Below are positions 1 through 16,376 of a stretch of 25,993 bases of DNA, piece after piece; the first letter of the stretch is position 1; each line of letters opens with the position of its first letter. The notes beneath the pieces were generated by a model that was not told the DNA's origin, ran no database searches, and saw only the letters and a program-made list of their open reading frames with translations. Origin of the DNA: Acidobacteriota bacterium (GTDB lineage: Bacteria > Acidobacteriota > UBA4820 > DSQY01). The stretch lies in contig JBMFSH010000035.1 of NCBI GenBank assembly GCA_049967655.1, positions 1 to 25,993 of the forward strand, given 5' to 3'. A program made the translations under genes and the position numbers.

Positions 1-2703
1 ATCAGCCTCACCGTCCCCCAGGGCGCCACGAGCGGCCCCGTCACGGTCACCACCACCGCCATGGTCAACGGCCAGCCGCTCGTCCAGACCAGCAACTCCG
101 AGGATATCCTGGTGATCTGGACCGACTACAGCCCGCCCTATGGTGGCCGACTCGATGTGTCTTCTTGGTCATCCGCCGTCCTGCCCGGCGCCAATGAGGA
201 TTTGTATGTGGTCAACGGGTATGCGGACTACTGGACGGTAGGTGATTACGTCTACCATATCGACAATCAGGGCCAGGTTTCCGAGACCGGCGGGGCATGG
301 TTTTCCAGGAACAACGGTACGGATGACTATTCGCTGTTCTATTCAGGCATCTCTGCGCGGAATCCGGCCGATGGGCAGGTCTATGGTCTCCTTGCCGAGA
401 ATTTCAACTATCCCAAGTACAATCCGCCCTATATCAACGAGGATATCGTGAATCTAGGAACGAGCTCGGTGGTACTGACCACGCAACAGCTCTTTTCAGA
501 TAGTGGCTGTCCACCTGCCAATGGTGGCTATGGCACGGAGAGCTTTACCATCGCTGCCTTCGGCTTCGACGCCCAGGGCGATCTCCTTGTGGTTGGTTAC
601 CGGTTACCATGCTACCATCTCGTACCCGTCGGCATTGGGACATACGCACCCGTAGTGGACAGGTCTGAAGCCTACGATTTCTGGTGGTTTCCCGCCAGCA
701 GTCTGAACGGCTCGACGGTCGTACTCTCACTGGATTCCGCCCTGCTCCCTTCCCCCATTGAAATGGGGGACTTCCTATCGAACGCCTATGGATTCTTTGG
801 CCCCTTCGGCCTTGCGGTCTCCCCCTCCGGTAATGCGATATGCCGGGTTTTCTGGGCTTCGGGCTGGGCGGGGGGGCAATCTCACGATGAAGTGCAAGAT
901 ACCGTCTGGGCTATCCCTCCCATGGGAAGTCAAGAACCGGTCCAGCAGCTTCCACCGCCTCCGCCAATACCCACGGATTTACAAGGATACTATGGTGCCT
1001 TTGGAACCGTAGCCGCTGATTGCATGGGTCGGTTTTACTTGATGGGGGCCATTGAGTCGGGTTCCAATCAGTCGGGACCCATTGTGGAATATGAGCAGGG
1101 ATCTGGCGGGGGATGGGCCGAAAACCCGTGGACGGCGGCGGCACCAGCGGGAGGGGCGACATGTGCCGCCAGTACGCTCAATTGGCCAGCGTGGCTGTCC
1201 TCCGACGCTTACGGAAATCTATACGAGAGCGGATGGGTCCCCACGCCCAATGGCAACTACAATGAAGATCTCCACCGCTTTTCAGCGTGCGAGCTGGTGG
1301 ACCCCCACTACTACGACAACTTCACCTGCTGCCCGACGGGCGTGCAGTACAAGGACGTGGTGCAGAAGAGCCGGGGGGAAAACGCCGAGCTCTCCTGTTC
1401 GACACTGACGATCAACATCTCCCAGAATGGCCAGACCATACCCGTCACCCAGAACGGGCAGACGGTCACGCTCCCCCTGGGAGCCACGCCAACGTTATCG
1501 CTACTCTCCAACAACCAGCCTGTCTCGGCCACGTGGGGTTTGCAGAAAGTCTGCCGGACGAACGGTCCCGATCCCGATGACCTCTTCCCCAACAACGTTG
1601 TCCTCCTCTTTCTGCCGAACGGTGGCTCCGGTGCGGGCTTGGCCGTTATGCACGTGGGTAGTGTTCAGATTACGGCCACTTCCACCTCAGGCCAGAGCAG
1701 TCTCTCCATTACCGTGAAGACGGTGGCGAGCGGCCCTCTTGGATCGGCCCACCCCGAGCTTGACTCTGCAATCTACACCGCTGCGGAGCAGTTCGGCATT
1801 CTGCCCCAATACATCAAGGCCATGATCCAGAAAGAAAGCACGTTTACGGCCACGGCCTACCGGTACGAGCCCCGAACATGGGACTATGGCGCCAGCCAGC
1901 CGGGATTCCGGCTCCGGCTGGGCGATCCGGCCTTCGCCGCCTTCGCCTTCCAGGAACCCTCCATGACGGGGGTGCCGGGCAGTCCGATTGCCGAAGGGCC
2001 GCTGACCTCAAGCTGGAAGGATATGCGGCTGGATGCACGGTACAGTTTCAAGCTGCTGCCCTCCTTTGCCGTCTGGAATCAGGGGCAGGGCTGCACGGCG
2101 GTGACGGGCGCGGATGGTGATCTTTCGGCCTACGCCTTGAGCTTGGGTACCTCCGCATGGTACGCCGTCGTTCCGGCCGGAAGCCCGTACAAGTATGGTC
2201 CCTGCGGCGAAGGCGAGGACTGGTACAAGCCGGTGAGCGTTTGGGAGTACGACGAATACCGGGCGGGTCGGTGCCCCAGCCTCTCCAATGCGGCTCTCGA
2301 CTTCTTCTACGACAATCCCTATACCGCCCAGACTGTGCTTGCAGCCTCTTACGGGTATATGCAGGTGGGTTTCGAGGCGCTCAAAGAGTTGGGGTGGTTG
2401 GGTATGGGTATCCCAGCCAATCTGGAGGTCGCTGGTAACGATCTCGGCTTGGGTAGCCCCGGTGACCTGGAAACCGCTTATACCAACATCGGCTTGGGGA
2501 GCCATTGGTTGGCGCGGCAACGACGGTATCTGTCGAGATACTACGGCGGCATTGGGCAAACCAGCCTATTGGATTTGCAGGACCACTTCATCTGGCTCTG
2601 CACGCTGTACAACGGGTCTCAGAAAAAGAGTGGCACAGCGTACGGTACAGAGATCGTCCGGACATTGGCCCCACCCTTTCAGCCACAGATTCCGGCCCAG
2701 TGA
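1..2703 (+). CDS. Large, probably extracellular multidomain protein, 5'-truncated by the window: IPT/TIG-like end, NHL/SBBP-like propeller repeats, Ig-like segment, C-terminal SLT-type lytic transglycosylase domain
   Basis: Frame is open from base 1 (ISLTVPQGATSGPVTVTTT...SNS, resembling an IPT/TIG C-terminus), so ATG 61 is internal. Blade-like repeats: GFDAQGDLLVVG, GLAVSPSGN, AADCMGRFYLMG, SSDAYGNLYESG. SLT motifs: AAEQFGILPQYIKAMIQKES (Glu at 1834), ASYGYMQV (~2344), NIGLGSHWL, LYNG (~2605). Confidence 0.8.
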   Translation: MSLTVPQGATSGPVTVTTTAMVNGQPLVQTSNSEDILVIWTDYSPPYGGRLDVSSWSSAVLPGANEDLYVVNGYADYWTVGDYVYHIDNQGQVSETGGAWFSRNNGTDDYSLFYSGISARNPADGQVYGLLAENFNYPKYNPPYINEDIVNLGTSSVVLTTQQLFSDSGCPPANGGYGTESFTIAAFGFDAQGDLLVVGYRLPCYHLVPVGIGTYAPVVDRSEAYDFWWFPASSLNGSTVVLSLDSALLPSPIEMGDFLSNAYGFFGPFGLAVSPSGNAICRVFWASGWAGGQSHDEVQDTVWAIPPMGSQEPVQQLPPPPPIPTDLQGYYGAFGTVAADCMGRFYLMGAIESGSNQSGPIVEYEQGSGGGWAENPWTAAAPAGGATCAASTLNWPAWLSSDAYGNLYESGWVPTPNGNYNEDLHRFSACELVDPHYYDNFTCCPTGVQYKDVVQKSRGENAELSCSTLTINISQNGQTIPVTQNGQTVTLPLGATPTLSLLSNNQPVSATWGLQKVCRTNGPDPDDLFPNNVVLLFLPNGGSGAGLAVMHVGSVQITATSTSGQSSLSITVKTVASGPLGSAHPELDSAIYTAAEQFGILPQYIKAMIQKESTFTATAYRYEPRTWDYGASQPGFRLRLGDPAFAAFAFQEPSMTGVPGSPIAEGPLTSSWKDMRLDARYSFKLLPSFAVWNQGQGCTAVTGADGDLSAYALSLGTSAWYAVVPAGSPYKYGPCGEGEDWYKPVSVWEYDEYRAGRCPSLSNAALDFFYDNPYTAQTVLAASYGYMQVGFEALKELGWLGMGIPANLEVAGNDLGLGSPGDLETAYTNIGLGSHWLARQRRYLSRYYGGIGQTSLLDLQDHFIWLCTLYNGSQKKSGTAYGTEIVRTLAPPFQPQIPAQ

Positions 2704-2713
2704 GGAGGCGACC

Positions 2714-4363
2714 ATGAAGACCAGGCACATTCTCTTAGCGTTCTTGGTGGCCCTGGCTCTGGGGCTCGGCATGACTGTTCTCGCGCAGACCTCCGGCACT
2801 GGACAGCTCTTCTACAACCAGAGCATCCCCGGCAACACCGTCATTCCGGACGGGCTGAAGTCATTGATTATGCAGTACTACCCCCAAGCCTTCACTAGCG
2901 GCTGGGGGTCCTCTGACTACGCTTGCCATCCCGAGATTCCCATCCAGGACGACCTGACCAACGGGCGGATCCAATGTTGGGAACAAGAGCTTTCGTCCAG
3001 TGGGCCTGATGTCTATGTCGTGACTTATAGCCGATGCGGCGAAACGCTTCTGCGGATCTTCGTGAAGGATGCCTCCGGTACCTATCACTATCTCTGGGGC
3101 GCCAACCCCGACGTTTTTGGCGGCACGCTCTGGGACCCCCACTTCGAGGATGTCGAAAACGACGGGATGAAGGACATCCTCTTGTACTGGGAGGACGACT
3201 CCTACAATACGGGTGCGACCGTCAATCAGGGGGTTCTGGTCCTCGCCTACCGGAATGGCGCCATCGTGCCCATCACACCCTACAACCCCCAGAACGGAGC
3301 CGCTTGGGTTATGGGGCCGCCAGCACCAGGTAATACCGATGCATATACCTGCACCTGCTCGGACTCAGGCGTGGGTTTCGTGGACATTGATGGAGACGGA
3401 ATCCCCGAACTTCTGGTCTATCCGGATTACGGGCCCGCTGGGAACCGCGTGTGGCTCGGCGGCACCGAGGTCTGGAAACTCGTGAATGGCGTCTACCAGT
3501 TCCAGTACGAAACGCCCATCGGCACGACCACGCCGAGCGGGGGCGTGATCGGCGCGGCGATCAAGCCGGCGTCTATTCCTCTGGGCGAGCTGCAAGGGGC
3601 GGGGGGAAACACCTCCGTGAAAGGCAAGAGCCAGGGCGGCGGGAATGACCAGGCGATCACGCTCTACGTCATGCCGCCCTCGGGTTTCACGCTAGACGAC
3701 GTGGACTGGACGAGTCTGCGCATCGCCGATTTCACGCAGGCCCCTACGGCCGACGAAGGGGTGACCCCGGCGCCCTACAGCGCCACCTCGCCGCCGGCCA
3801 CAATGATGCCCGTGAGCCGCTTCGGCCAGACCATGCTCCAGGAGGACCTCTCCAAGCCGGATATGTCCTTCACCCAGCAGGACGCGGACCCGGTCTACAC
3901 CATCGGTCCCAGCGGCAGGCTGCACTTCACGACGCCCTATCACGTGTTTGGGTTCTCGAAGACGCTCCTCCTGCCGTGGCTCTACCAGCAGTGGCAGAAC
4001 GGGGCCTCCTCTTCGCCCCTGACCACCTGCGTCTCGCCTGGGCAGAGCTCGTCCTCCGCGAGGAAGGGGGGGACCAAGGCCGGGAGCCAGACGCCGCCGG
4101 CCTCGAAGGCCGCCCCGGCCAAGCCTGCCGGCACGAAGGGGCCCGCCACCAAGGCCCAGCCCGAGAGCCAGGGGAATCCCCACTGCTTCGCGCCCATCAC
4201 CATTCCCATTCGCGTGAACCTGACCAACAACCGCGGCCCCGCCCTCGGGGAAGCCCGCATCTGGATCGACACTGGGGCGCAAGGTTCTTCTTCCGCTGCC
4301 GCTGACGCGGGCGGGACAAAGCAACTCACGGGCCGCAAGGCACGGGCGGACAGCGCCAAGTAG
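2714..4363 (+). CDS. Exported protein (549 aa) with signal peptide and two FG-GAP/VCBS-like Ca-binding motifs; function unknown
   Basis: GGAGG RBS at 2704-2708, ATG 2714. MKTRHILLAFLVALALGLGMTVLA-Q is a Sec signal peptide. Motifs FEDVENDGMKDILL (~3143) and FVDIDGDGIPELLV (~3377). Lys/Ala/Pro-rich linker near the C-terminus. Confidence 0.8.
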   Translation: MKTRHILLAFLVALALGLGMTVLAQTSGTGQLFYNQSIPGNTVIPDGLKSLIMQYYPQAFTSGWGSSDYACHPEIPIQDDLTNGRIQCWEQELSSSGPDVYVVTYSRCGETLLRIFVKDASGTYHYLWGANPDVFGGTLWDPHFEDVENDGMKDILLYWEDDSYNTGATVNQGVLVLAYRNGAIVPITPYNPQNGAAWVMGPPAPGNTDAYTCTCSDSGVGFVDIDGDGIPELLVYPDYGPAGNRVWLGGTEVWKLVNGVYQFQYETPIGTTTPSGGVIGAAIKPASIPLGELQGAGGNTSVKGKSQGGGNDQAITLYVMPPSGFTLDDVDWTSLRIADFTQAPTADEGVTPAPYSATSPPATMMPVSRFGQTMLQEDLSKPDMSFTQQDADPVYTIGPSGRLHFTTPYHVFGFSKTLLLPWLYQQWQNGASSSPLTTCVSPGQSSSSARKGGTKAGSQTPPASKAAPAKPAGTKGPATKAQPESQGNPHCFAPITIPIRVNLTNNRGPALGEARIWIDTGAQGSSSAAADAGGTKQLTGRKARADSAK

Positions 4364-4538: not shown

Positions 4539-4571
4539 AGGGGGCGTCCTTCAGGAGTCGGGACGCCTTTT
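4539..4571 (+). terminator. Possible intrinsic terminator
   Basis: GGCGTCC (4543-4549) pairs with GGACGCC (4561-4567), followed by TTTT; the U-tract is short. Confidence 0.4.
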
Positions 4572-4613
4572 GCCCAACCGGCTTTTGCCCAACCGGCTTT
4601 TGCCCAACCGGCT
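4567..4613. repeat. Tandem repeat, 3 exact copies of 15-mer CTTTTGCCCAACCGG
   Basis: Copies at 4567-4581, 4582-4596 and 4597-4611, plus 2 further nt. Confidence 0.95.
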
Positions 4614-4641
4614 GGACAACGGGGAGGGAAGGACTTACTAT
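4613..4641 (+). promoter_or_regulatory. Sigma70-type promoter for ctpA-ffh
   Basis: TGGACA (4613-4618), 17-nt spacer, TACTAT (4636-4641). Confidence 0.6.
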
Positions 4642-4649
4642 GGACCGCT

Positions 4650-6200
4650 ATGGTGCGCCGAGCCGCTCTGCTGATGATATTGTTCCTGATGGCGCTGGGC
4701 ATGGCCGGTGACTGGCCGAGCCAGGATCTGCGCGCGGGCGGCGGCGACCAGGCCAAGGCCGCCGAGAAGCTGTACCTGCAGGTGGCCGACCTGGTCGAGA
4801 CCCGCGGCTACGAGAAGCCGCCGGGGCAGGACCTTCTCAGCGATTCCCTGGACGGCATGCTCCACAGCCTCGACCCGCACAGCAACTACTACTCGCCGCA
4901 GGTCTTCAGGGACCTCATGGAGGACCAGGAGGGCAAGTTTTCGGGACTCGGCATGCTGGTGGCCAAGCCGAGCGCCACCTCCCCCCTCCTGGTGGTGAAC
5001 CCCATCCCCGACACGCCGGCCTGGCGGGCCGGTATCCGGGCGGGCGACGTGATCCTCGAGGTGGACGGGCAGCCCACCGACAAGATGAGCAGCCGTGAGG
5101 CGGTGCGGAAGCTCAAGGGCCCCGACGGGACCCTGGTGACCATCAAGGTGGGCCGCGGGTCGGCGCCGCCCGAGGTGATGACCCTCAAGCGGGCGCCCAT
5201 CCCCAAGCACACCGTGCCCTACGCCTTCATGCTGAAGGACGGAGAGGGCTACGTGAAGATCAACACCTTCGGCCAGACCACGGCCGACGAGCTAGCGGAG
5301 AACCTGGACCGCCTGAGGGACGAGGGGATGACCTCCCTCATCCTGGACCTTAGGGACAATCCGGGAGGGGCCCTGAAGGCGGCCGTGGACGTGGCCTCCA
5401 TGTTCCTCTCGCGGGGCCAGGAGGTGGTGAGCATTCGGGGCCGCTACGCCGGGATCGTCCGGCGTTACGTGGCCTACAAGGACGGCGCTTACTCCAAGAT
5501 TCCCATGGTGGTGCTCATCGACCTGGGGTCGGCCAGCGCCTCGGAGATCGTGACAGGCGCCCTCCAGGACCACGACAGGGCCGAGGTTGTGGGCGAACGC
5601 TCCTGGGGCAAGGGGCTCGTGCAGACGCTGACCCCGCTGGACAACGACGGCGCGGTGGCCATCACCACGGCACGGTACTACACGCCGTCCGGAAGACTGA
5701 TCCAGCGGGACTACAGCCACTCCTACGACGCCTACTACTTTCCCGACGAGCAGCCCAAGGGTGTGGACGAGCCCGTAGAGCCCAAGCCTGAGGCGCACAC
5801 CGACAACGGCCGCCCGGTCTACGGAGGCGGCGGCATCACGCCCGACGTCAAGGTGAAGGCCATGGAGATTCCGGCTCTGGCCCAGCGCCTCGAGAGGCGG
5901 AGGGCCTTCCTGGAGTTCGCCGCGAAGGAGGCCGAGCAGGGGCGCCTGGACGCTAAACGGGCCGAGTCTCCCGAGGTGCTGGACGCCTTCAAGGCCTACC
6001 TCGCCCAGCAGAAGATCGCTTACACGCCCGAGGAGTGGAAGGGCAGCGAAGCGTACATCCGCTGCGCCCTGGGCCGCGAGGCCATGACCATGCTGGATGG
6101 CCAGGCGGCCGGCTACAAGGCCATGATTCCCATGGACCTTCAGCTCCAGAAGGCGGAGCAGATCCTTCAGACCATGACCCACCAGCAGAAGGCGGCGTGA
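4650..6200 (+). CDS. ctpA: Carboxy-terminal processing protease, S41A family (PDZ + peptidase)
   Basis: Hydrophobic N-terminus MVRRAALLMILFLMALG; LDPHSNY; PDZ motif GKFSGLGM; LDLRDNPGG; catalytic SASASEIV and GERSWGKGLVQ; TTARYYTPSGRLIQ. Start chosen at ATG 4650. Confidence 0.92.
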   Translation: MVRRAALLMILFLMALGMAGDWPSQDLRAGGGDQAKAAEKLYLQVADLVETRGYEKPPGQDLLSDSLDGMLHSLDPHSNYYSPQVFRDLMEDQEGKFSGLGMLVAKPSATSPLLVVNPIPDTPAWRAGIRAGDVILEVDGQPTDKMSSREAVRKLKGPDGTLVTIKVGRGSAPPEVMTLKRAPIPKHTVPYAFMLKDGEGYVKINTFGQTTADELAENLDRLRDEGMTSLILDLRDNPGGALKAAVDVASMFLSRGQEVVSIRGRYAGIVRRYVAYKDGAYSKIPMVVLIDLGSASASEIVTGALQDHDRAEVVGERSWGKGLVQTLTPLDNDGAVAITTARYYTPSGRLIQRDYSHSYDAYYFPDEQPKGVDEPVEPKPEAHTDNGRPVYGGGGITPDVKVKAMEIPALAQRLERRRAFLEFAAKEAEQGRLDAKRAESPEVLDAFKAYLAQQKIAYTPEEWKGSEAYIRCALGREAMTMLDGQAAGYKAMIPMDLQLQKAEQILQTMTHQQKAA

Positions 6201-7578: not shown

Positions 7579-7607
7579 TTGACAGCCCTATGCCCGGGTG
7601 CTACCAT
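7579..7607 (+). promoter_or_regulatory. Strong sigma70-type promoter with extended -10
   Basis: TTGACA (7579-7584), 17-nt spacer, TGc-TACCAT (7602-7607); 44 nt upstream of ATG 7651, which has a GGGAGG RBS. Confidence 0.8.
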
Positions 7608-7650
7608 ATTCGCACCTGTACCACAGGCTTCTCTGGGGAGAAGGGGAGGC

Positions 7651-10600
7651 ATGACGAAGAAACGGGTTCTCATCGTCGATTACGAGCCGAAACTTCTGGA
7701 CCGCTTGCAGTCGCAGCTGCCGGCGGACCAGTTCGAGGTGGCCACCGCGCAGGACGGCTTCGCCGCCCTCGAGGTCTTCGAGAGCTTCCATCCGGACCTG
7801 GTCTTCCTCCGGACCATGCTGCCCAAGAAGCACGGCTTCCAAGTCTGCCAGGAGATGGTCGAGCGCTCCGGCTCCCGTCGCGTCCCCATCGTCATGCACT
7901 GCAGCATCTACAAGAGCCGGAAGTACCGCAACGATGCCATGAAGATCTACGGCGCCGCCGAGTACCTGGAGGACCCCATCTCGCCGGAGACCCTCCAGAG
8001 CGTGATGAAGGAGCTGCTCGACAAACAGCCCTCGGCCCCCGCGCCCGCCGCTAAGGCGACCGGCCTGCCCGATCTGGCCATGCCGAGTCCTTCCAAGGCC
8101 TCCAAGCCCAAGGGTAGCACCGGCTTCGACGTGGACAAGACCATCGAGGATACGCTCTCGGGCATCAACTTGGGGCTGAAAAAGAGCAAAAAACCGTCGA
8201 TGGAAGAGACAGTTCCCATCGGCGATTTTTCCTCCCCCGAGCCTCCTCCTCCGCCGCCGCCCGCCGCCCCTCCTCCCGAGGCTCCTCAGGTGGGCGAACA
8301 GGGGGTCACGTCGGAGGAGCTCTTCGGGGAGGTGATCCACGATGTGATCGAGCCGGGCCAGGCTTCGCAGCCCTCTGCGGCGGAGTCGTCTTCCACCGCC
8401 GGAGCCCCGGCCGCCGCGCCCCCCCCTCCGCCCCTGCAGGCCAGCACCGCCCCGCCGCGAAGGATGCCCGTGGTGGACGTGAACGCGGCCCTCGGAGAGC
8501 GCTTGCTGACCGCTCCGAAGGGCGAAGATACGGCGGTTCGCCGCCTGAAAGCGAGGAGCCAGTCCGAGCTAGACCGGAAGCTGGAGGAGACCCTCTCCGG
8601 CGTGAAACTGGGAGCCAGGGAGGGAATCCGGCCCACTCCGCCCGCTCCTGCGCCCGTCGAGGCCAAGGCCGCTCCGGTGGCTCCTGTGCCCGCCCCCGAA
8701 TCTCTCCGGGAGGAGGCGAAGCCCGCGCCCACTCCCGAGGCGGCCAAGACGGCCGCGCCCGAACCGCCGAAAGAAAAGGCGGCCGCTGGCGAGGAGGGGA
8801 TTCCTTACGGCCAGTACATGCTCATGGAGAGGATCGCCGTCGGCGGGATGGCCGAGCTCTTCAAGGCCCGCCAGAACGGGCTGGAAGGCTTCAAGCGGAT
8901 CGTGGCCATCAAGCGCATCCTGCCGCACCTGGCCGCCAACCAGGAGTTCGTCACCATGTTCATCGACGAAGCCAAGCTGGCGGCCCAGCTGAACCATCCC
9001 AACATCGGCCACATCTACGACCTGGGCAAGCTGGAGGACTCCTACTTCATCGCCATGGAGTACGTGGAGGGCAAGGACCTGCGGGCCATCATGAGGGAGA
9101 TCGAGGAGCGCAAGCGCCTCATGCCCATCCGCGTGGCCACCTTCATCGCCCAGAAGGTCTGCTCCGCCCTTCAGTACGCGCACCAGGCGAGGGACATGGA
9201 CGGAAAGCCCATGGACATCGTGCACCGAGACGTCTCTCCCCAGAACATCATCATCTCCACGAGCGGAGAGGTGAAGCTCGTGGACTTTGGCATCGCCAAG
9301 GCCGCCTCCAAGGCCAGCCACACGGTCTCCGGAGCGCTCAAGGGCAAGCTGCTCTACATGTCGCCCGAGCAGGCCTGGGGCAAAACCGTGGATCGGCGCG
9401 GGGACATCTTCTCCCTGGGCATCGTCATGGCCGAGATGCTCACGGGAAAGAAGCTCTTCTACGGCGATTCGGAGATGTCCATCCTTGAAAAGGTTCGGGA
9501 AGCCAAGGTGGTGCCGCCCAAGGAGAGCCGCCCGGAGGTCCCCGACGCCCTCCAGCGGATCATCCTCAGGGCCCTCCAGCGCGACCCCGAGCGCCGCTAC
9601 CGGGACTGCAAGGCGATGCAGGCCGAGCTCGAGAAGTTCGCCTACGGCGAATGGGAGACGCTGCCCTCCGCCTACGACGCGGCGGCCTTCCTCACCGACA
9701 TTTTCCCGGAGGTCTACAGGCGCGAGATCCTGGAGGTCCTCAAGAGGGAGCCGGAGGAGACCGCGGAAGCGGCCGCCGACGGAGGTGCCGAGGCTGCGGA
9801 GAAGGCCGAGGCCGCCGCCAGGGCCAAGGCGCCCAAGTCCGAGCGAGGGAAGTACGCGCCCGGAAAAAAGGAGCGGGCCAGGTCCGCCGAGCAACAAGCT
9901 CCGCCCGAGGCCGCCAAGCCGGCCGCCTCCAAGCCTGTGGTACCGGCCCCGGCTCCCAAGCCGGCTCCACCGCCGCCGCCTCCTCCTCCAACTCCGCCTC
10001 CGGCCCCCAAGCAGGAGGAGCGGGCGCCCGAGATGTTCGGTAGCATGGTGGAAGAGAAGTCCGGAAAGAAAAACCTGCTCCTCTTCGGCGGCATCGCGGC
10101 CGCCCTTCTGGTCGTCGCGGTGGTGGCCCTCTTCGTGATAACGGGGAAGAAAAAGCCCGCCGAGGCGTCCCCCTCCCCGCCTGCCGCCCCTCCCGCCGCC
10201 GCGGCCACGTCGGCGCAGACGGCGACCAAGCCGGTGGAGGTTCCGCCTCCGGTCATCGAGGCACCCAAGCCGGCGCCGCCGCCAGCCGCCGCTCCTCCCG
10301 CGACGGACGCCCAGCTCGCCAGCGCCAAGCGGTCGGCCACGAGGACCCTCGGCGAGCTCGCGAATGGGATCGCCGCGCTGGAGAAGGGCAACGCCGCCAA
10401 GTATGCCGCGGCCTCGCTGGATTCCCTCAAGAGGAGCCAGGCGAACCTGTCGGATTCGCTGAGGCGGGCCAAGACCGTGGAGGAGTACCAGGCGGTCCAG
10501 GAGGGCGGCCAGAAGGCGCTGCCGCTCATCAACCAGGTGAGGGACCAGGTCAACCAGGCCAAGGCGGCGGAGGCGGTTCAGGCCGCCGAGGCCGCCCAGA

Positions 10601-11007
10601 AGGCCGAGCAGGAGCAGGCCGCCCAGAAGGCCGCCGAAGCCGCCCAGAAGGCCCAGGAGGCGGCCAAGACCCAGCCGGCGGCCTCCGCCAGCAAGGTCAA
10701 GGCCGGCGACTTCGTGCAGCTCTGGGCGGTGGACGTGAAGCCTCGGATCGTCAATTCGATCCAGGCGCAGTACACCTCCTTGGCCCGCGCCAACCGGGTG
10801 CAGGGCACCATCTATGTTCAGGCGCAGATCGACGAAACGGGTAGGGTAACCAGCGCGCAGGTGGTACGCGGCCCTCAGCCCGACTACGGGCTGGACGAAG
10901 AGTGCGTGAAGGCGGCCCTGAAATCCCGGTATTCCCCCGCGATCAAAGACGGCGTTCCCGTGAAGACGTCCATTACCTATCCGGTGGTGTTCAAGATCGG
11001 CCAGTAG
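7651..11007 (+). CDS. Fusion protein (1118 aa): pseudo-receiver, Pro-rich linker, Ser/Thr protein kinase, TM helix, Pro/Ala-rich TolA-like stalk, TonB C-terminal domain
   Basis: REC fold KRVLIVDYE...PDLVFLRTMLP...YLEDP. Kinase IAVGGMAELFKA, VAIKRI, HRDVSPQN, DFGIAK, YMSPEQ (~8815-9640). TM LLLFGGIAAALLVVAVVALFVI (~10075-10140). TonB_C YTSLARANRVQGTIYVQAQIDETGRV...YSPAIKDGVPV...VVFKI. Confidence 0.9.
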   Translation: MTKKRVLIVDYEPKLLDRLQSQLPADQFEVATAQDGFAALEVFESFHPDLVFLRTMLPKKHGFQVCQEMVERSGSRRVPIVMHCSIYKSRKYRNDAMKIYGAAEYLEDPISPETLQSVMKELLDKQPSAPAPAAKATGLPDLAMPSPSKASKPKGSTGFDVDKTIEDTLSGINLGLKKSKKPSMEETVPIGDFSSPEPPPPPPPAAPPPEAPQVGEQGVTSEELFGEVIHDVIEPGQASQPSAAESSSTAGAPAAAPPPPPLQASTAPPRRMPVVDVNAALGERLLTAPKGEDTAVRRLKARSQSELDRKLEETLSGVKLGAREGIRPTPPAPAPVEAKAAPVAPVPAPESLREEAKPAPTPEAAKTAAPEPPKEKAAAGEEGIPYGQYMLMERIAVGGMAELFKARQNGLEGFKRIVAIKRILPHLAANQEFVTMFIDEAKLAAQLNHPNIGHIYDLGKLEDSYFIAMEYVEGKDLRAIMREIEERKRLMPIRVATFIAQKVCSALQYAHQARDMDGKPMDIVHRDVSPQNIIISTSGEVKLVDFGIAKAASKASHTVSGALKGKLLYMSPEQAWGKTVDRRGDIFSLGIVMAEMLTGKKLFYGDSEMSILEKVREAKVVPPKESRPEVPDALQRIILRALQRDPERRYRDCKAMQAELEKFAYGEWETLPSAYDAAAFLTDIFPEVYRREILEVLKREPEETAEAAADGGAEAAEKAEAAARAKAPKSERGKYAPGKKERARSAEQQAPPEAAKPAASKPVVPAPAPKPAPPPPPPPPTPPPAPKQEERAPEMFGSMVEEKSGKKNLLLFGGIAAALLVVAVVALFVITGKKKPAEASPSPPAAPPAAAATSAQTATKPVEVPPPVIEAPKPAPPPAAAPPATDAQLASAKRSATRTLGELANGIAALEKGNAAKYAAASLDSLKRSQANLSDSLRRAKTVEEYQAVQEGGQKALPLINQVRDQVNQAKAAEAVQAAEAAQKAEQEQAAQKAAEAAQKAQEAAKTQPAASASKVKAGDFVQLWAVDVKPRIVNSIQAQYTSLARANRVQGTIYVQAQIDETGRVTSAQVVRGPQPDYGLDEECVKAALKSRYSPAIKDGVPVKTSITYPVVFKIGQ

Positions 11008-11026: not shown

Positions 11027-11251
11027 GTGGCGAGTACGCTCACCGAAAAGCAGAAGAAGTTCTATGAAGACGCCCATAGGCAGACGAAGGAAGAGATCAA
11101 GGAGATCGACGCCTCCATCGAAGAGGAGCTGGCCAAGGTGAAGGAGCGGCTCGCCCAGCTTCAGGAAGCAAAGAAGGCGGCCCTCCAGATGCACTCGGCG
11201 GCCTGCATGCGGCTCGGCCTGAAGAACGAGTTCGAGGAGGAGAGCGAGTAG
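11027..11251 (+). CDS. Small charged coiled-coil protein (74 aa), unknown function
   Basis: AAGGAGG RBS before GTG 11027; host-like codon usage; heptad-like EIKEIDASIEEELAKVKERLAQLQEAK. Confidence 0.85.
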   Translation: MASTLTEKQKKFYEDAHRQTKEEIKEIDASIEEELAKVKERLAQLQEAKKAALQMHSAACMRLGLKNEFEEESE

Positions 11252-11266
11252 TTTTTTCCCCGCAGC

Positions 11267-11433
11267 CATCCAAGGTGCCCCTACCGGGGTGAAAAGGGAA
11301 GGCCGTGAAATTCGGCCGCGGCCCCGCCACTGTGAGCGGCGACGAAAGCGGCGATGAGCCACTGCCTCGGAAGAGAGGCGGGAAGGCGCCGTCAGTAGGA
11401 TGACCCGCAAGCCAGGAGACCTGCCTGAGGATG
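11267..11433 (+). ncRNA. Cobalamin (B12) riboswitch
   Basis: AGGTGC...AAAAGGGAA-GGCCGTGAAATTCGGCC-GCGGCCCCGCCACTGTGA...GCCACTG...GGGAAGGC...AAGCCAGGAGACCTGCC (B12 box), closed by CATCC/GGATG; lies upstream of a btu transport operon. Confidence 0.95.
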
Positions 11434-11508
11434 CCCGATTGGGTGCCCCCTCGTGGGAGGGGAACCGAACCGTGCGCCCCCGGAAGCCCCGGTCTATCGG
11501 AGGGTTTC

Positions 11509-12450
11509 GTGAGGCGCATTCGGCTTTCTAAGGCATCCACCTCCAGCTCCGCGGCCGTGCGGAGGGCCCTCGCGCCCGTCTGGTTTCAGGCCGCCTTGCC
11601 GGCGGGGCACCTCCTCCTCGTATCCTTCATCGTCCTCTCACTTCCATTTCTCGCGAGCTGCGGTGGAGGCCCCGTCGCCGCCCGGCCGGCGGCGCACGGC
11701 CGCTGGGTCAGCCTGTCGCCGAGCATGACGGAGGTCCTCTTCGCGGTGGGGGCCGGCCCCGAGGTGGCGGGCGTCTGCGCACCCGCGAGCTACCCGCCCG
11801 AGGCTCGAGTCCTTCCCACGGTGGCCTCCTGGGACCGGGTGGACGTGGAGGCGATCCTGGCCCTGCATCCCCGGGCCTGCTTCACGGTGGAGGGGATGCA
11901 GAGCCCCGAGGTGCTGGCCACGCTGAGGCGGCTGGGAGTGCCGGTCTTCGTCTACCCCATGCGGAACTTGGAGGATCTCTGGCGGTGCATGACGGACGTG
12001 GGAGAGCGGACCGGCCACGGGAGGGAGGCCGGAGACCTGGTGAGCGCCCTCCAGGCGCGGGTGCGCGCCGCCTCTCCGGCGGGCGGTGAAGCGAGGCTGA
12101 GTGCGGTCGTCGTCGTGGGGCTGGATCCGCTGGTGGCCGCCGGGCACGGCTCCTTTTTGGACGGGGTTCTCCGGGCGGCCGGGTACGCGAACGCGCTCGG
12201 CGCCGTGGCGGAGAGCTATCCGGCCCTCTCCGTGGAGCGGGTGGCCGAGGCGGAGCCGGAGGTCCTCATCATGCCCCAGGGGGAGATCCCCGCCGGTCTC
12301 GGAAAGGCCTTCGCGGCGCGGCTGCGAAAGCTGGAGGGCAAGCCCGTCCGCGAGGTCTGGGTGCCGGCCGACCTCCTCGTGCGCCCGGGGCCTCGGACCG
12401 TGGAGGCCATCGAGGCGCTGGCCGCGGCCCGTCGGGGGGTGGCGCCGTGA
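11509..12450 (+). CDS. btuF: Cobalamin ABC transporter substrate-binding lipoprotein (helical-backbone family)
   Basis: Lipobox-like FLASC; RWVSLSPSMTEVLFAVGAG; DVEAILALHP; LLVRPGPR. Start inferred at GTG 11509 after GGAGGG, because ATG 11431 lies within the riboswitch; the exact start is uncertain. Confidence 0.85.
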   Translation: MRRIRLSKASTSSSAAVRRALAPVWFQAALPAGHLLLVSFIVLSLPFLASCGGGPVAARPAAHGRWVSLSPSMTEVLFAVGAGPEVAGVCAPASYPPEARVLPTVASWDRVDVEAILALHPRACFTVEGMQSPEVLATLRRLGVPVFVYPMRNLEDLWRCMTDVGERTGHGREAGDLVSALQARVRAASPAGGEARLSAVVVVGLDPLVAAGHGSFLDGVLRAAGYANALGAVAESYPALSVERVAEAEPEVLIMPQGEIPAGLGKAFAARLRKLEGKPVREVWVPADLLVRPGPRTVEAIEALAAARRGVAP

Positions 12451-13409
12451 GGGCCCGCGAGGGCTGGGCCCTGGGCCTGGCCGCCGCCTGCGCGGCGGGG
12501 ACCTTTGCCGCGGCCATGACCCTGGGCCTGCCCGGGACGGCCGGGGGTTTGGCCGGGCGGATCCTCTGGTCGGTTCGCCTGCCGGAGGCGCTCACGGCGC
12601 TCATCGTGGGAGGCGGGCTGGGCCTGTCCGGGCTCCTGTTCCAGCTCGTGCTCCGGAACCCGCTCGCGGACCCGTACGTGCTGGGCGTGGCGGGGGGCTC
12701 GACCTTCGCCGCCGTGGCCGCCACGCTCTTCCTCGGCACGGCCGCCGCCGGCGGGGGCATGGCGCTGCGGGGGGCCGCGGCCCTGGCGGGTGGACTGCTC
12801 ACCCTGGCCGGGCTCATGAAGCTGGCCGGCGGCAAGCCGGAGACCCTCCTGCTGGGCGGCGTCGTGGCCAACACGGCCTTCGCGGCGGGCGCGCGGATGC
12901 TCACCGTATGGCTCTCGCCCGAGCAGCTTGCCTACGTGACGACCTTCCTCGTCGGTTTCATCCCCACCCCGCCCGCGGCCGTTCCTCTCCTGCTGGGCAT
13001 TCCCTGCCTCTACACGCTGGCCCGGTTCATGCCCCGGGGCAGGGGGCTGGACCTCCTGCTCCTCTCGGACGACGAGGCGCTCGCCACGGGGCTGGAGGTG
13101 GAGCGGGTGCGCCGCGAGGCCCTCCTGCTGGCCACCGTTCTGGCCGCCGCGGCGGTCACGCTCTGCGGCATGCTCGGCTTCGTAGGCCTCGTGGTGCCGC
13201 ACCTGGCCCGCCTGACCGCCGGCCGCCGCCACCGCGTCCTGGTGCCCGCCTCCTTCCTGCTGGGCGCCGCCTTCCTCCTGGCGGCGCTCACCGCGGGGAA
13301 GCTCCTCGGAGGCTCCTGGCTGGCGCCGGTCGGTGTTTACACCAGCCTGGTGGGGGCTCCCGTCTTCCTGGTCCTGCTCGTGCGCTCCAGCCGGAGGGAG
13401 CTGCCGTGA
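12447..13409 (+). CDS. btuC: Cobalamin/iron-chelate ABC permease (FecCD family)
   Basis: VRLPEAL; LRNPLADPYVLGVAGG; DEALATGLEV; GMLGFVGLVVPHLAR; PVGVYTSLVGAPVF. GTGA overlap with btuF. Confidence 0.9.
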   Translation: MRAREGWALGLAAACAAGTFAAAMTLGLPGTAGGLAGRILWSVRLPEALTALIVGGGLGLSGLLFQLVLRNPLADPYVLGVAGGSTFAAVAATLFLGTAAAGGGMALRGAAALAGGLLTLAGLMKLAGGKPETLLLGGVVANTAFAAGARMLTVWLSPEQLAYVTTFLVGFIPTPPAAVPLLLGIPCLYTLARFMPRGRGLDLLLLSDDEALATGLEVERVRREALLLATVLAAAAVTLCGMLGFVGLVVPHLARLTAGRRHRVLVPASFLLGAAFLLAALTAGKLLGGSWLAPVGVYTSLVGAPVFLVLLVRSSRRELP

Positions 13410-14245
13410 TCAAGCTGAGAAAGGTCCACTTCGCCTATCCGGGAGCGCATCGGCTGCTGAAGGGCGCCGACCTGGAGGTCGGGCCGGGGGAGGTGGTGGC
13501 CCTGGCGGGCCCCAACGGGGCTGGAAAGAGCACCCTCCTGCGCATCGCCGCGGGCCTTCTGGCGCCCTCGGAGGGAGAGGCCCTCCTGGACGGACGGCCC
13601 GTCGAGAGCTGGTCGCGGGTCGCGAGGGCCAAGCGGCTCGCCTACGTGGCCCAGAGCCCCAAGACGCCGGAGGAGTGGCGGGTGAGCGAGATCGTGGAGC
13701 TGGGCGACTACCCGCACCGCGAGCAGCCGCCGGCGCCCAGGCCGCTGGCCGTTCGGCTGGAGGAGGTCCAAAGGAGGCTGGGCCTGGCCCCGGTCTGGGA
13801 CCGGCGGGCCGACAGCCTGAGCGGCGGCGAAGCTCAGAAGGTCTCCCTCGCGCGGGCGCTGGTCCAGGACACTTTGAACCTCGTTCTGGACGAGCCGGCG
13901 AGCCACCTGGACCTGGCCAACCAGATGGTTCTCTTCCGGAGCCTCCGTGAGCTGGCCGCCCAGGGGCGCTCGGTCCTCCTGGCCACGCACGACGTGAACC
14001 TCTCGCGCCTCTTCGGGCAGAGGCTCGTCCTGCTCAACGGCGAGGGGATCGTGAAGCCGATGCCGGAGGGAGCCGAGGAGCAGGGGCGGTTGCTGCACCA
14101 GGCCTTCGGCGTCGCCTTCAGGCCCGTGGAGCTCTCGGGGACACTCTGCTGGTTTCCCGATCCGCGCGGGGAGAGGCCGGCCGCGCAGGAGCGGCACGCG
14201 GCCGAAGGCGAGGAGGGCGGGCCGGCGGGGCCCGGCGGGAAATGA
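13406..14245 (+). CDS. btuD: Cobalamin/iron-chelate ABC ATPase
   Basis: GTG 13406 overlaps the btuC stop; Walker A GPNGAGKST; LSGGE; LVLDEPASHLD; ATHD. Confidence 0.9.
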   Translation: MIKLRKVHFAYPGAHRLLKGADLEVGPGEVVALAGPNGAGKSTLLRIAAGLLAPSEGEALLDGRPVESWSRVARAKRLAYVAQSPKTPEEWRVSEIVELGDYPHREQPPAPRPLAVRLEEVQRRLGLAPVWDRRADSLSGGEAQKVSLARALVQDTLNLVLDEPASHLDLANQMVLFRSLRELAAQGRSVLLATHDVNLSRLFGQRLVLLNGEGIVKPMPEGAEEQGRLLHQAFGVAFRPVELSGTLCWFPDPRGERPAAQERHAAEGEEGGPAGPGGK

Positions 14246-14366
14246 CCTCGAGATGGAGTCGGCGCGAGGATGCGCCTTTGCGTGGAAAGCGGCCCCCGGC
14301 TAGGGCCGATGAAGATGCGGACGGGGCCGGGCAGGGTCCGCACCCTTTGATGATGGGAGACGAAGG

Positions 14367-16376
14367 ATGAGAGCCAGAATCGTGGTGGCAGCTACCCTCC
14401 TCGCGGCGGCCCTGGTTACTCCAGTCGCCGCTCAGGAGGCCCAGAACCTCCTGGAGAACTACGGCACGGTCGTCACCGTTTACGGCGAGCGGATACCCGT
14501 GGAGGAGAGGCAGATTCTGAACACGGCGGCGGGCGTTACGGTCATCACTCGAGAGGCCATCCAGAAGATGGGGGCGACGACCGTCCAGCAGGTCCTGGAG
14601 AGCCTTCCGGGCGTGGTGCTGAACAACATCACGGGGAATCCCGTGGAGAGCAGTGCGGACCTCCGCGGCTTCGCCGATGGTACCAGCATGGCCGTCTTCC
14701 TGGACGGTGTCCGCCTGAACGACATCCAGGACAACAGCGTCCGCTGGGACCTCATCCCCATCGAGGACGTGGAGCGCATCGAGGTCTACCCGGGCGCCTC
14801 CGGACCCCTCTATGGCGGCGGCGCCCTGGCGGGCGTGGTCAACATTATTACGAGGCGGGACCCGGGCATCCCGCGACTCGATTTGAAGGGGGAGGCTGGC
14901 TCCTTCGACGCGCGCGAGGCGAGGACCCACGCCTCCGGCAGCTTCGGCCCGTGGGAGTTCTACGCCACCGCGACCCAGAGGCACGCCAAGGGCTGGCGCG
15001 AGAACGACGGCTACCGGCTCGACGACGGGCTCGTCCGCCTGAGCTACACGCCCGACAAAGCAAACCAGCTCGCCCTCCTCGTGAAGTACTCGGGAGGGGC
15101 GATCAGCGATCCCGGCTCGCTGACGGCCAAGGAGATGGCCCAGAATCCCCGCCAGGACCCCTACAACCGCTACGACGGGACCCGCGGCCGGGATTACCTG
15201 GCCAGCCTCCGCTACGCTTTCACCCCCGCCAGTGGATGGAGCTTCTCAGCCCAGGCTTACGGCCGCAAGCAGGACCGCGACACCCTCACCACCGGCCGCT
15301 ATGGCTCCGGCTTTCTCGGATCGGACCAGGAGGACCTCCAGGGACTTCTGGCGGACGCCAGCCGCACCTGGAAGCGGGGGCCCTGGAGCTTCGCAGCCTC
15401 TGGGGGAGCGGACCTCTCCTCGGGGACAGTGAGCGCGGACGGCTTCTATACCGACATCTACGGGCAGAACAAGCGCGCGGCGAGCCGGAACGACCTGAGC
15501 CAGCACAACTCGGGCGCCTACCTCCAGGGCGACCTGGGCTGGGGGAGCCTGCACCTCGTCGTGGGCGCGAGGACCGACCGGAGCGCCTACGGCTACTCGG
15601 ACCTCTTCAGCGCCCGGAACGACCAGGAGCGGGTCTTCAGGGAATCCACCTGGCGCTCGGGCCTGCTCTGGCACACGGGGCCGTGGTCCTCCCTCTTCCT
15701 GACCTACTCGGAGGGCTACCGCATCCCCTCCGTCGTGGAGCTCTTCGCCTACCCGGGCTTCTACTCCAATCCCGACCTGCGCTCCACCCGGGCCGGGGAT
15801 TGGGAGGGGGGATGGCGCTACCTCAAGGGGGGATGGCGCTTCAGCGTGACGGGCTTCCGCATGCACATGACCGACGAGGTGGTCTACGTGCTGACCCATC
15901 CCAAGCTCTTCATCGGCGAGAACATGAACGTGGGGCGCTCCACCCGCAAGGGCGTCGAGGCGGAGGCGCACATCCCCCTGCCGGCTGGCTTCGCCTTCCA
16001 CCTCACGGGCTCTTACCTGGAGAGCGAGGTGACGGCGGGGCCCTACGCGGGTCACCGCCTGCCCATGGTGCCCAGGGGCTCGGGTTCGGCGGGGCTCTCC
16101 TGGTCCAATCCGGACCTGAGCGTGGAGCTCTACGGCCACTGGGTCGGCCCGCAGCCGCTGGACAACGACCTGCTCAACCAACAGCCCGACCTGCCGGGCT
16201 ACTCCACGCTGGATTTAAGCGTGCGCTACGCCTTCCGCGCCGTGACGGTGCAGGGGACGGTCACCAACCTCCTCGACCGGCGCTTCGCCGACCGGGGGAT
16301 CACCAACGGCGCCACGAATTACTTCACCCCCGCCTATCCCCAGGCCGTAAGGTTCTCGTTCATGTGGAGCTTTTAG
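14367..16376 (+). CDS. btuB: TonB-dependent outer-membrane receptor, probably for cobalamin
   Basis: Signal peptide; TonB-box-like TVVTVYG; plug motifs VTVITREAI, LDGVRLN, IERIEV-type VERIEVYPG, LYGGGALAGVVNIITR; NLLDRRF; C-terminal Phe. Substrate inferred from the riboswitch. Confidence 0.88.
   Translation: MRARIVVAATLLAAALVTPVAAQEAQNLLENYGTVVTVYGERIPVEERQILNTAAGVTVITREAIQKMGATTVQQVLESLPGVVLNNITGNPVESSADLRGFADGTSMAVFLDGVRLNDIQDNSVRWDLIPIEDVERIEVYPGASGPLYGGGALAGVVNIITRRDPGIPRLDLKGEAGSFDAREARTHASGSFGPWEFYATATQRHAKGWRENDGYRLDDGLVRLSYTPDKANQLALLVKYSGGAISDPGSLTAKEMAQNPRQDPYNRYDGTRGRDYLASLRYAFTPASGWSFSAQAYGRKQDRDTLTTGRYGSGFLGSDQEDLQGLLADASRTWKRGPWSFAASGGADLSSGTVSADGFYTDIYGQNKRAASRNDLSQHNSGAYLQGDLGWGSLHLVVGARTDRSAYGYSDLFSARNDQERVFRESTWRSGLLWHTGPWSSLFLTYSEGYRIPSVVELFAYPGFYSNPDLRSTRAGDWEGGWRYLKGGWRFSVTGFRMHMTDEVVYVLTHPKLFIGENMNVGRSTRKGVEAEAHIPLPAGFAFHLTGSYLESEVTAGPYAGHRLPMVPRGSGSAGLSWSNPDLSVELYGHWVGPQPLDNDLLNQQPDLPGYSTLDLSVRYAFRAVTVQGTVTNLLDRRFADRGITNGATNYFTPAYPQAVRFSFMWSF

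Follow-up and report, generated by a model that had tools for sequence, protein, structure and literature searches.

A patchy cassette in an Acidobacteriota genome pairing a candidate antibacterial peptidoglycan-cutting enzyme with an exported, inhibitor-like partner

The stretch of DNA analysed here, referred to as the window, is 25,993 nt long and comprises the entire contig C35 of an Acidobacteriota bacterium (GCA_049967655.1, JBMFSH010000035.1; source genome G000, with the genomes of relatives labelled G001, G002 etc.). At its left end lie two open reading frames (ORFs) on the forward strand. ORF1 (1-2703, 900 residues) is open at its 5' side because base 1 of the window is also base 1 of the contig, and ORF2 (2714-4363, 549 residues) has its ATG at 2714, 10 nt past the TGA of ORF1. 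GC content is 0.58-0.62 over 1-3000 as against 0.64-0.76 from 4001 onward, and neither protein has a match in NCBIfam. The first-pass annotation of this DNA put the two forward as a candidate effector/immunity pair, a proposal supported by the SLT fold of ORF1, by the co-location of the two genes, by the inhibitor-like fold of the partner and by a weak complex score.

With its 5' part taken from contig C28, ORF1 reads in the order signal peptide, poly-C tract, TIG domain, variable propeller, Ig domain and SLT domain. The window opens within the IPT/TIG domain, of which the 3' half occupies 1-114 (+); the Pfam TIG match is above cut-off in the 96%-identical orthologue of ORF1 (E 8.3e-6). The next module (118-1290, +) is Cys-rich, variable and probably beta-propeller-like. 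It is exchanged between alleles, being only 23-31% identical to that of alleles whose TIG domains are 55-95% identical, and could be a putative targeting or adhesion part. A conserved linker (1271-1386, +) then leads to the Ig-SLT part and keeps 85-96% nucleotide identity between otherwise dissimilar alleles, which makes it a likely recombination junction. It is followed by an Ig/Big-like beta-sandwich (1396-1734, +), modelled by AlphaFold with a predicted local distance difference test (pLDDT) score mostly above 90 and resembling a LigA Big domain (Z 5.9). Thus, of the adhesin-like modules first ascribed to ORF1, the TIG end and the Ig-like segment stand, while the propeller blades are suggested more weakly, by Atlas leads to NHL/SGL clusters (0.86-0.88) and by SBBP in one homologue.

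The remainder of ORF1 (1738-2703, +) is assigned by fold, profile and motifs to an SLT/GH23-type lytic transglycosylase domain with a large insertion. Its motifs, read in the sequence from the outset, are all present: IQKES at residues 609-613, GYMQV at 785-789 and YNG at 870-872, with the aligned catalytic Glu612 codon at 1834-1836 (+), the GYMQ motif at 2353-2364 (+) and the YNG motif at 2608-2616 (+). In a 40-sequence alignment of the Ig-SLT part, Glu612 is invariant (40/40), as is Y-G-x-x-Q, and YN is kept in at least 90%. The model of the Ig-SLT part (pLDDT 80, predicted template modelling score 0.85), whose first 110 residues are the Big-like domain, confirms a lysozyme-like fold at the C-terminus. 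The closest structures (VIA) are MltC (Z 9.2, root mean square deviation (rmsd) 2.8, 134 aligned), MltF (Z 8.9) and MltE (Z 8.6), the Mlt set as a whole superposing at rmsd 2.4-3.0 over 129-135 aligned residues. The same fold occurs in the GH23 chitinase 3w6b (Z 7.4) and in a GH124 cellulase (Z 7.2), both below the Mlt/Slt enzymes. Foldseek with the Ig-SLT model gave no match at E<=0.001. The Pfam SLT score of ORF1 itself is weak (E 0.13, 12.3 bits against a cut-off of 21.3) because the insertion divides the match; the paralogue on contig C59 passes with 22.3 bits, 20 of 40 family members match at E<=0.05 (best 2.7e-13), and the family profile reaches Slt70 at E 1.7e-5. On the strength of the model and the conserved residues, the domain probably cleaves peptidoglycan.

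The family is large, with at least 426 clusters at E<=1e-30 in a 50% identity library. A Glu stands at the catalytic position in 143 of 156 family proteins; 12 were unmatched by the pattern and one has Trp. The first SLT motif and the SYGxMQ motif are separated by 128-225 residues (115 of the 156 proteins scored), and SYGxMQ lies no more than 168 residues from the C-terminus in 127/127 scored. A crude test found a hydrophobic leader in 92 of 136 Met-starting members. The N-termini are diverse: 110 long ones fall into 75 clusters, few of which are named by Pfam (TIG, Ig, Big_1, CARDB, LapA and DUF7453 among 75 proteins scanned). Six further SLT genes are present in G000, so that the housekeeping role is covered elsewhere in this genome.

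ORF2 was first described as starting just behind ORF1, with its ribosome-binding site abutting the TGA and with a Sec signal peptide, and all of this is seen in the sequence. The ribosome-binding site (2703-2713, +) contains a GGAGG that touches the ORF1 stop, which would let ORF2 be translated independently. The leader (2714-2785, +), judged by eye, is of the typical Sec/signal peptidase I type and is without a lipobox. The N-terminal domain (2789-3511, +; model pLDDT 78.7) is a partial beta-propeller. It has FG-GAP-like motifs, also part of the first description, two in number; the Pfam FG-GAP_3 match (E 4.9e-5) stays below cut-off. Top-ranked against the model (VIA) are CarG (Z 7.7) and PliI-Ah (Z 7.4, rmsd 2.6, 109/122), and the XAC2610 entry 4qtq gives Z 6.5. 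According to PMC10933484, 4QTQ is XAC2610, an immunity protein that belongs with PliI and Tsi1 to one fold class of loop-inserting wall-hydrolase inhibitors. Other signs lean the same way: the ORF2 profile finds PliI-Ah at E 0.097, one partner homologue exceeds the Pfam PliI cut-off across 29 residues, and the Atlas lead for the partner is a PliI cluster (0.91; PF16743 in 20% of members). Across 11 alleles the exposed loops of the domain are hypervariable (18-29%, strands about 50-74%). The N-terminal domain is accordingly regarded as a candidate SLT inhibitor, modelled as PliI/XAC2610-like.

A predicted interface between the SLT domain and ORF2 is weakly supported, the complex scoring 0.50 and the best control 0.00. 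Runs shared at least 43% of contacts, with a partner pLDDT of at least 74. The mark used is reached by 116 of 157 solved and by 2 of 215 mismatched pairs, and the scores of 0.60 or less that pass it comprise only 18 solved pairs together with both mismatches. The rest of ORF2 (3521-4363, +), a C-terminal domain plus low-complexity tail, is near-constant among close alleles, being 89-95% identical where the N-terminal domain is 42-81%. By lineage it differs, with unrelated domains elsewhere, FIMAH for one in the partners of locus L060. The idea that it is a common C-terminal tag of secreted proteins found no support (hhalign probability 0.7%).

Linkage of the two genes is strong. Enzyme and partner occupy the identical 9 of 30 genomes of the class, and the enzyme is present in 12 of 401 genomes sampled from the phylum. 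A second pair of G000, on C59, is 28% and 27% identical to the window pair, and G001 has four. A partner profile built within the class found partners adjoining the enzyme in 10 loci outside it, directly downstream in loci labelled Acidobacteria, Bdellovibrio, Caldithrix, Brevinema and Bacteroidetes, so that co-location of the homologues, on which the first proposal leaned, holds across phyla. In one set of 18 loci the partner lies downstream in 15, a count in which 11 of the partner sequences were part of the search profile; the misses are two short SLTs and L059. Additional partners stand in tandem or upstream at L050, L055 and L060, and L032 has a second SLT and partner cassette in tandem, without the N-terminal part. 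Two distant members may be mentioned separately. In L059, labelled Kryptoniota, the downstream gene resembles the partner yet gives no profile match, and L060, labelled Bacteroidetes, has two tandem partners with FIMAH tails. A metagenome scan with the TIG profile gave two loci, one of which, L069, matches the G017 leader and is not counted separately. An origin as a phage lysin or prophage gene was rejected, the seven viral loci being weak matches to short SLTs lacking the insertion and having no partner match.

The cassette is mosaic. Against G001:C84 the window is 99-100% identical over 1-2400, 61-85% over 2401-3450 and then mostly 93-97%; since the drop is confined to 2401-3450, the SLT tip and the partner N-terminal domain moved together, and the jointly exchanged block is placed at approximately 2400-3450 (+), taking in the last part of the SLT domain and the N-terminal domain of ORF2. 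Synonymous divergence (dS) is 1.42 in the partner N-terminal domain and 0.13 in its C-terminal domain, and against G001:C215 the two domains of ORF2 are 42% and 93% identical. The propeller is exchanged as well: proteins P0004 and P0006 have 100% identical propellers and SLT domains at 60%, and P0001 and P0004 have SLT domains at 90% and propellers at 26%. Propeller and SLT domain thus reassort across the conserved linker. The comparison with G001:C84 gives 99-100% nucleotide identity between two species (window 1-2400, L022 285-2684), as against about 95-97% protein identity for the flanking S41 peptidase, which suggests a recent horizontal transfer of ORF1. Two loci with deletions were also seen. 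At L037 (G017:C51) the whole propeller is deleted while Ig-SLT and partner are kept, and the propeller may therefore be dispensable. L036 (G013:C16) is a remnant with the TIG start fused to the partner C-terminal domain region.

The first-pass annotation had invoked polymorphic toxins; their classical pattern, a constant N-terminus with swapped C-terminal toxins, is not the one seen here. Among the relatives surveyed, the C-terminus stays SLT and the N-terminal modules vary most. Relatives with the window's TIG or linker, where assembled far enough, end in SLT, with the G013 remnant as exception; swapped toxin types at the C-terminus were not seen among them, in a survey whose searches were partly SLT-based and could miss rare other tips.

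Upstream sequence, named in the first-pass annotation as the way to the N-terminus of ORF1, was traced to contig C28. This contig finishes with 270 nt that are those of G001:C84 1-270 (100%), and G001:C84 runs after a further 14 nt into the 96%-identical ORF1; hence C28, which ends 14 nt ahead of window base 1, almost certainly carries the ORF1 start. Its end encodes a signal peptide of 26 residues, then a C11 run that shifts out of frame the TIG domain, whose 5' half also lies on C28. Among 13 leaders tabulated, 11 have a run of C8-C14, a simple 5' coding repeat whose length sets the frame and differs between relatives. Ten of the 11 are out of frame, six by +1 (C46 being counted among them by its match to C59) and four by +2, and the leaders are related, so that these ten are not ten independent trials. 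The eleventh, in frame, is the deleted G013 remnant. The other two leaders lack a long run; one of them reads in frame, and the second, which is a remnant, is out of frame. Tract-free alleles in frame exist (G024:C275 and P0174), one with a propeller 91% identical to that of the window, and a sister-family leader from G025 is also without a tract. One relative's contig has a leader of the C28 type, gapless over a C10 tract where C28 has C11, and a replaced propeller. The minus strand of G000:C46 (1-130) bears a third leader, with signal peptide and C10, and the contig ends 5 nt later. In G003 the C46-type context runs directly into a pair, so that C46 may mark a third G000 cassette that was not assembled, or may connect in the direction of C59.

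Switching of ORF1 by changes in poly-C length, i.e. phase variation, is the likeliest reading of these leaders, and a reasonably probable one given the sequences at hand. Two results speak against it: none of the tabulated leaders has an in-frame tract in an intact gene, and tract-length variation within a population was not observed, the contigs being those of relatives only. A competing explanation, possible and still well short of an even chance, is that the tract is a leak, with transcriptional slippage or frameshifting on CCC-C giving constant low expression, or else an assembly error or decay. It would account for every intact tract-bearing copy being out of frame, and +1 shifts at CCC-C are known. 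Long C/G runs are prone to sequencing error, which counts for the assembly-error version. However, the mixed offsets (+1, +2) and lengths from C8 to C14 are unlike a programmed shift, and the secreted enzyme of 10.1101/2020.09.16.300947 is an earlier case of a poly-C phase switch. Assembly error is further opposed by the identical C11 in two independently assembled genomes and by a control in G000, where 31 of 32 other coding C/G runs of 8 or more stay in frame (only 3 are of 9 or more). Purifying selection speaks against decay into a pseudogene, a reading that was rejected: the out-of-frame copies keep long open frames, with ratios of nonsynonymous to synonymous change (dN/dS) of 0.16-0.31, compared with 0.13-0.14 for the S41 gene. 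For the window against G001:C84 the ratio is 0.51, owing to the recombined tip.

The cassette is patchy, inserted and low in GC. It sits upstream of a gene for an S41 C-terminal processing peptidase (4638-6200, +; TIGR00225 above cut-off), a housekeeping flank that was found in 5/5 genomes searched and serves as a landmark of the insertion outside the cassette, and it is bounded by 99-bp imperfect (88%) direct repeats. The right copy (4602-4700, +) overlaps the start of the S41 gene and the left copy is on C28; in G002 and G003 the site is empty. In G001:C84 (L022) the pair is followed at 4650-5852 by a broken S41 5' piece and then by a second identical leader at the contig end, and this locus is a tandem cassette array at the S41 site. 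Upstream of the S41 gene, the window has three copies of a 15-nt unit at 4564-4613, adjoining the direct repeat and differing in G001, and a sigma-70-like site at 4613-4641. Near the second pair of G000 a transposon-like remnant lies just upstream of the leader (C59, L001, about 12500-12900) and is common to C16, C6 and C72. A 77-nt repeat is common to the start of C72 and the sequence ahead of the C59 cassette, and C72 1-7407 encodes an Rhs/YD-repeat-like protein of more than 2,400 residues, ending in Ig-/PKD-like repeats, without an obvious toxin tip by eye. Farther along the window, also by eye, are a 1,142-residue frame with a response-regulator-like start, a Ser/Thr kinase and a TonB-C-like end (7579-11007), and a probable cobalamin riboswitch followed by btuF/btuC/btuD-like genes and a TonB-dependent receptor (11097-16376).

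Taken together, these data make it somewhat more probable than an even chance that ORF1 is an antibacterial enzyme that cuts peptidoglycan and ORF2 the antidote that belongs to it. ORF1 would cross the inner membrane by Sec, its signal peptide being seen, and then probably leave via a type II secretion system or in vesicles. G000 has a type II-like cluster on C1 at 83-94 kb (F, E, secretin and pseudopilin-like genes, by Pfam and by eye) as well as type IV pilus genes, and no secretion or pilus genes stand beside the pair in the loci read. Delivery by type VI or type IV secretion (T6SS, T4SS) was rejected, given the Sec leader on ORF1 and given that G000, which is 99% complete, yielded no VipB or VirB4 with the queries used. 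The SLT domain, whose fold and Glu612 are seen, would cut MurNAc-GlcNAc bonds through that residue, and the variable N-terminal modules may choose the cells or surfaces bound. While the enzyme traverses the producer's periplasm it has to be held in check on the spot, a task suited to an exported ORF2. Its PliI/XAC2610-like domain, going by fold likeness and co-inheritance, would plug the SLT cleft in the periplasm and so shield the producer during passage of the enzyme through its own wall, and against kin. Recombination at conserved blocks reshuffles the propeller and, separately, the SLT tip with the inhibitor domain, as observed among alleles. The poly-C tract behind the signal-peptide cleavage site holds ORF1 out of frame in the majority sequence, and slipped-strand changes in its length might turn ORF1 on in a minority of cells, with ORF2 keeping its own ribosome-binding site. 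Tentatively, and with clearly less confidence than the antibacterial role itself, the family may be a widespread and so far undescribed one of freely secreted wall-lytic toxins with a reversed polymorphism, in which the SLT domain is fixed, the targeting modules are swappable and the PliI-like antidote is swapped together with the tip. In the Acidobacteriota members the poly-C tract would arm few cells while all are immune, which would make the pair a bet-hedged weapon of an environmental, non-pathogenic lineage.

Several points weigh against the antibacterial pair. A secreted enzyme must cross the outer membrane of a Gram-negative target, for which no uptake route was found. The ORF2 N-terminal domain is a middling fold match (Z below 8), unrelated propellers reach Z 7.2, and Foldseek places integrin propellers top. 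The weak pass in complex prediction may reflect likeness to solved lysozyme-inhibitor complexes, and fold likeness can mislead: the MliC-like PhiA failed to inhibit SagA (PMC8334348). Over all pairs, SLT identity tracks the partner C-terminal domain (rho 0.91) like the N-terminal domain (rho 0.90); because the two values are nearly equal, the overall correlation reflects only relatedness, and it was set aside as uninformative. Finally, L059 has no partner match, one of 16 insertion-type loci.

The pair might instead serve predation or scavenging, another ecology on unchanged chemistry: the exported enzyme would feed the cell by digesting walls of prey or of dead cells, and the partner would do no more than protect the producer in export. 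The pair does occur in three genomes labelled Bdellovibrio (L046, L055 and L056), the highly varied N-terminal modules suit substrate targeting, and PnpA, a wall hydrolase secreted by a type II system, is proposed in PMC7860986 to act in competition or nutrition. This explanation is nevertheless unlikely: orphan partners, the presence of four pairs within G001 and the allele-specific exchange of tip together with inhibitor suit kin conflict better, and an enzyme for feeding would hardly be expected to be off by default. Slightly less probable again is remodelling of the cell's own wall, with an accessory transglycosylase opening it for a surface structure and ORF2 acting as a chaperone or regulator. 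Export by Sec could leave both proteins in the periplasm, the nearest folds are housekeeping Mlt enzymes, and Brucella SagA/PhiA is such an autolysin pair (PMC8334348). An accessory found in so few genomes of class and phylum and inserted at an otherwise empty site argues against this, as do the loci read, where secretion or pilus genes do not adjoin; fast reshuffling and orphan partners are not expected of it, and six other SLT genes are available. A substrate other than peptidoglycan, with ORF1 as a GH23-type chitinase or similar glycan hydrolase and ORF2 as a non-inhibitory surface lectin or adhesin, would suit the chitinase and cellulase folds, the large insertion, which could alter specificity, and the integrin-like Foldseek matches of the partner, but is very improbable, as Mlt/Slt enzymes rank above and there would be little reason for so strict a linkage to an exported, PliI-like partner unless the substrate were present in the producer itself.

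If the antibacterial reading is true, the family would be a large one of wall-lytic enzymes that act without an injection machine; it would supply cognate SLT targets for the PliI/XAC2610/Tsi1 inhibitor fold and would indicate conflict between bacteria in Acidobacteriota, a phylum with few tests of this kind so far. With targeting modules that can be separated and a series of alleles, rules of specificity are directly testable in E. coli. A poly-C switch, if true, would carry phase variation, studied chiefly in bacteria that live with hosts, over to the control of a weapon dangerous to its own producer, and the frameshift would account for database copies of these proteins that lack signal peptides.

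No description of this SLT/FG-GAP immunity family was found in the literature, with supplements and subscription papers outside the search and a bioinformatic mention possible; the first 300,000 characters of PMC3482391 mention neither 'transglycosylase' nor 'FG-GAP', and PMC9927483, on pesticin-like effectors, adds in the part consulted only a T6SS example. The nearest arrangement is that of the Xanthomonas effector and immunity protein X-Tfe XAC2609/X-Tfi XAC2610 and of Tse1/Tsi1, in which a wall-degrading enzyme is likewise followed by an exported partner of the PliI/XAC2610/Tsi1 class (PMC10933484), and which makes protection from self-intoxication plausible for ORF2. Those are cytoplasmic effectors that a T4SS or T6SS injects, whereas ORF1 has a Sec signal peptide; moreover, the enzyme here is an SLT with a large insertion, and ORF2 is without a lipobox and has an extra C-terminal domain. 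Neisseria MafB/MafI, as described in PMC4287609, shares signal-peptide-dependent export, a downstream immunity gene, cassettes and recombination. However, MafB has a constant N-terminus and a varied toxin type, the reverse of the present family with its single toxin class and its greatest variation in the N-terminal modules, and MafI is cytoplasmic while ORF2 is exported. With no injection machine found by the VipB and VirB4 queries, a fixed toxin class and variable N-termini, the pair is a member of neither group.

For the separate parts, PliI-Ah (PF16743) gives the best superposition by rmsd (2.6 Å over 109/122, Z 7.4), and one partner lies above its Pfam cut-off, but PliI is a stand-alone protein of 122 residues directed at animal i-type lysozyme, and the ORF2 domain is about 240 residues, fused, and paired with a self-encoded enzyme. 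MltC, MltE, MltF and Slt70 (GH23, Pfam SLT) share the fold, the catalytic Glu and the GLMQ-like and YN motifs, and differ from ORF1 and its family in the 128-225 residues between motifs, the preceding Ig domain, the varied N-termini and the accessory status. Photobacterium PnpA is also an exported wall hydrolase proposed to hit competitors; it is an NlpC/P60 peptidase that spares its own wall, and the abstract of PMC7860986 mentions no inhibitor. In the Gardnerella nanH3 locus (10.1101/2020.09.16.300947) a C run frameshifts a secreted enzyme just as in the leaders described above, whereas the host here is an environmental Acidobacteriota, the gene may be an antibacterial weapon whose antidote is translated on its own, and the switching is put forward from the leaders themselves.

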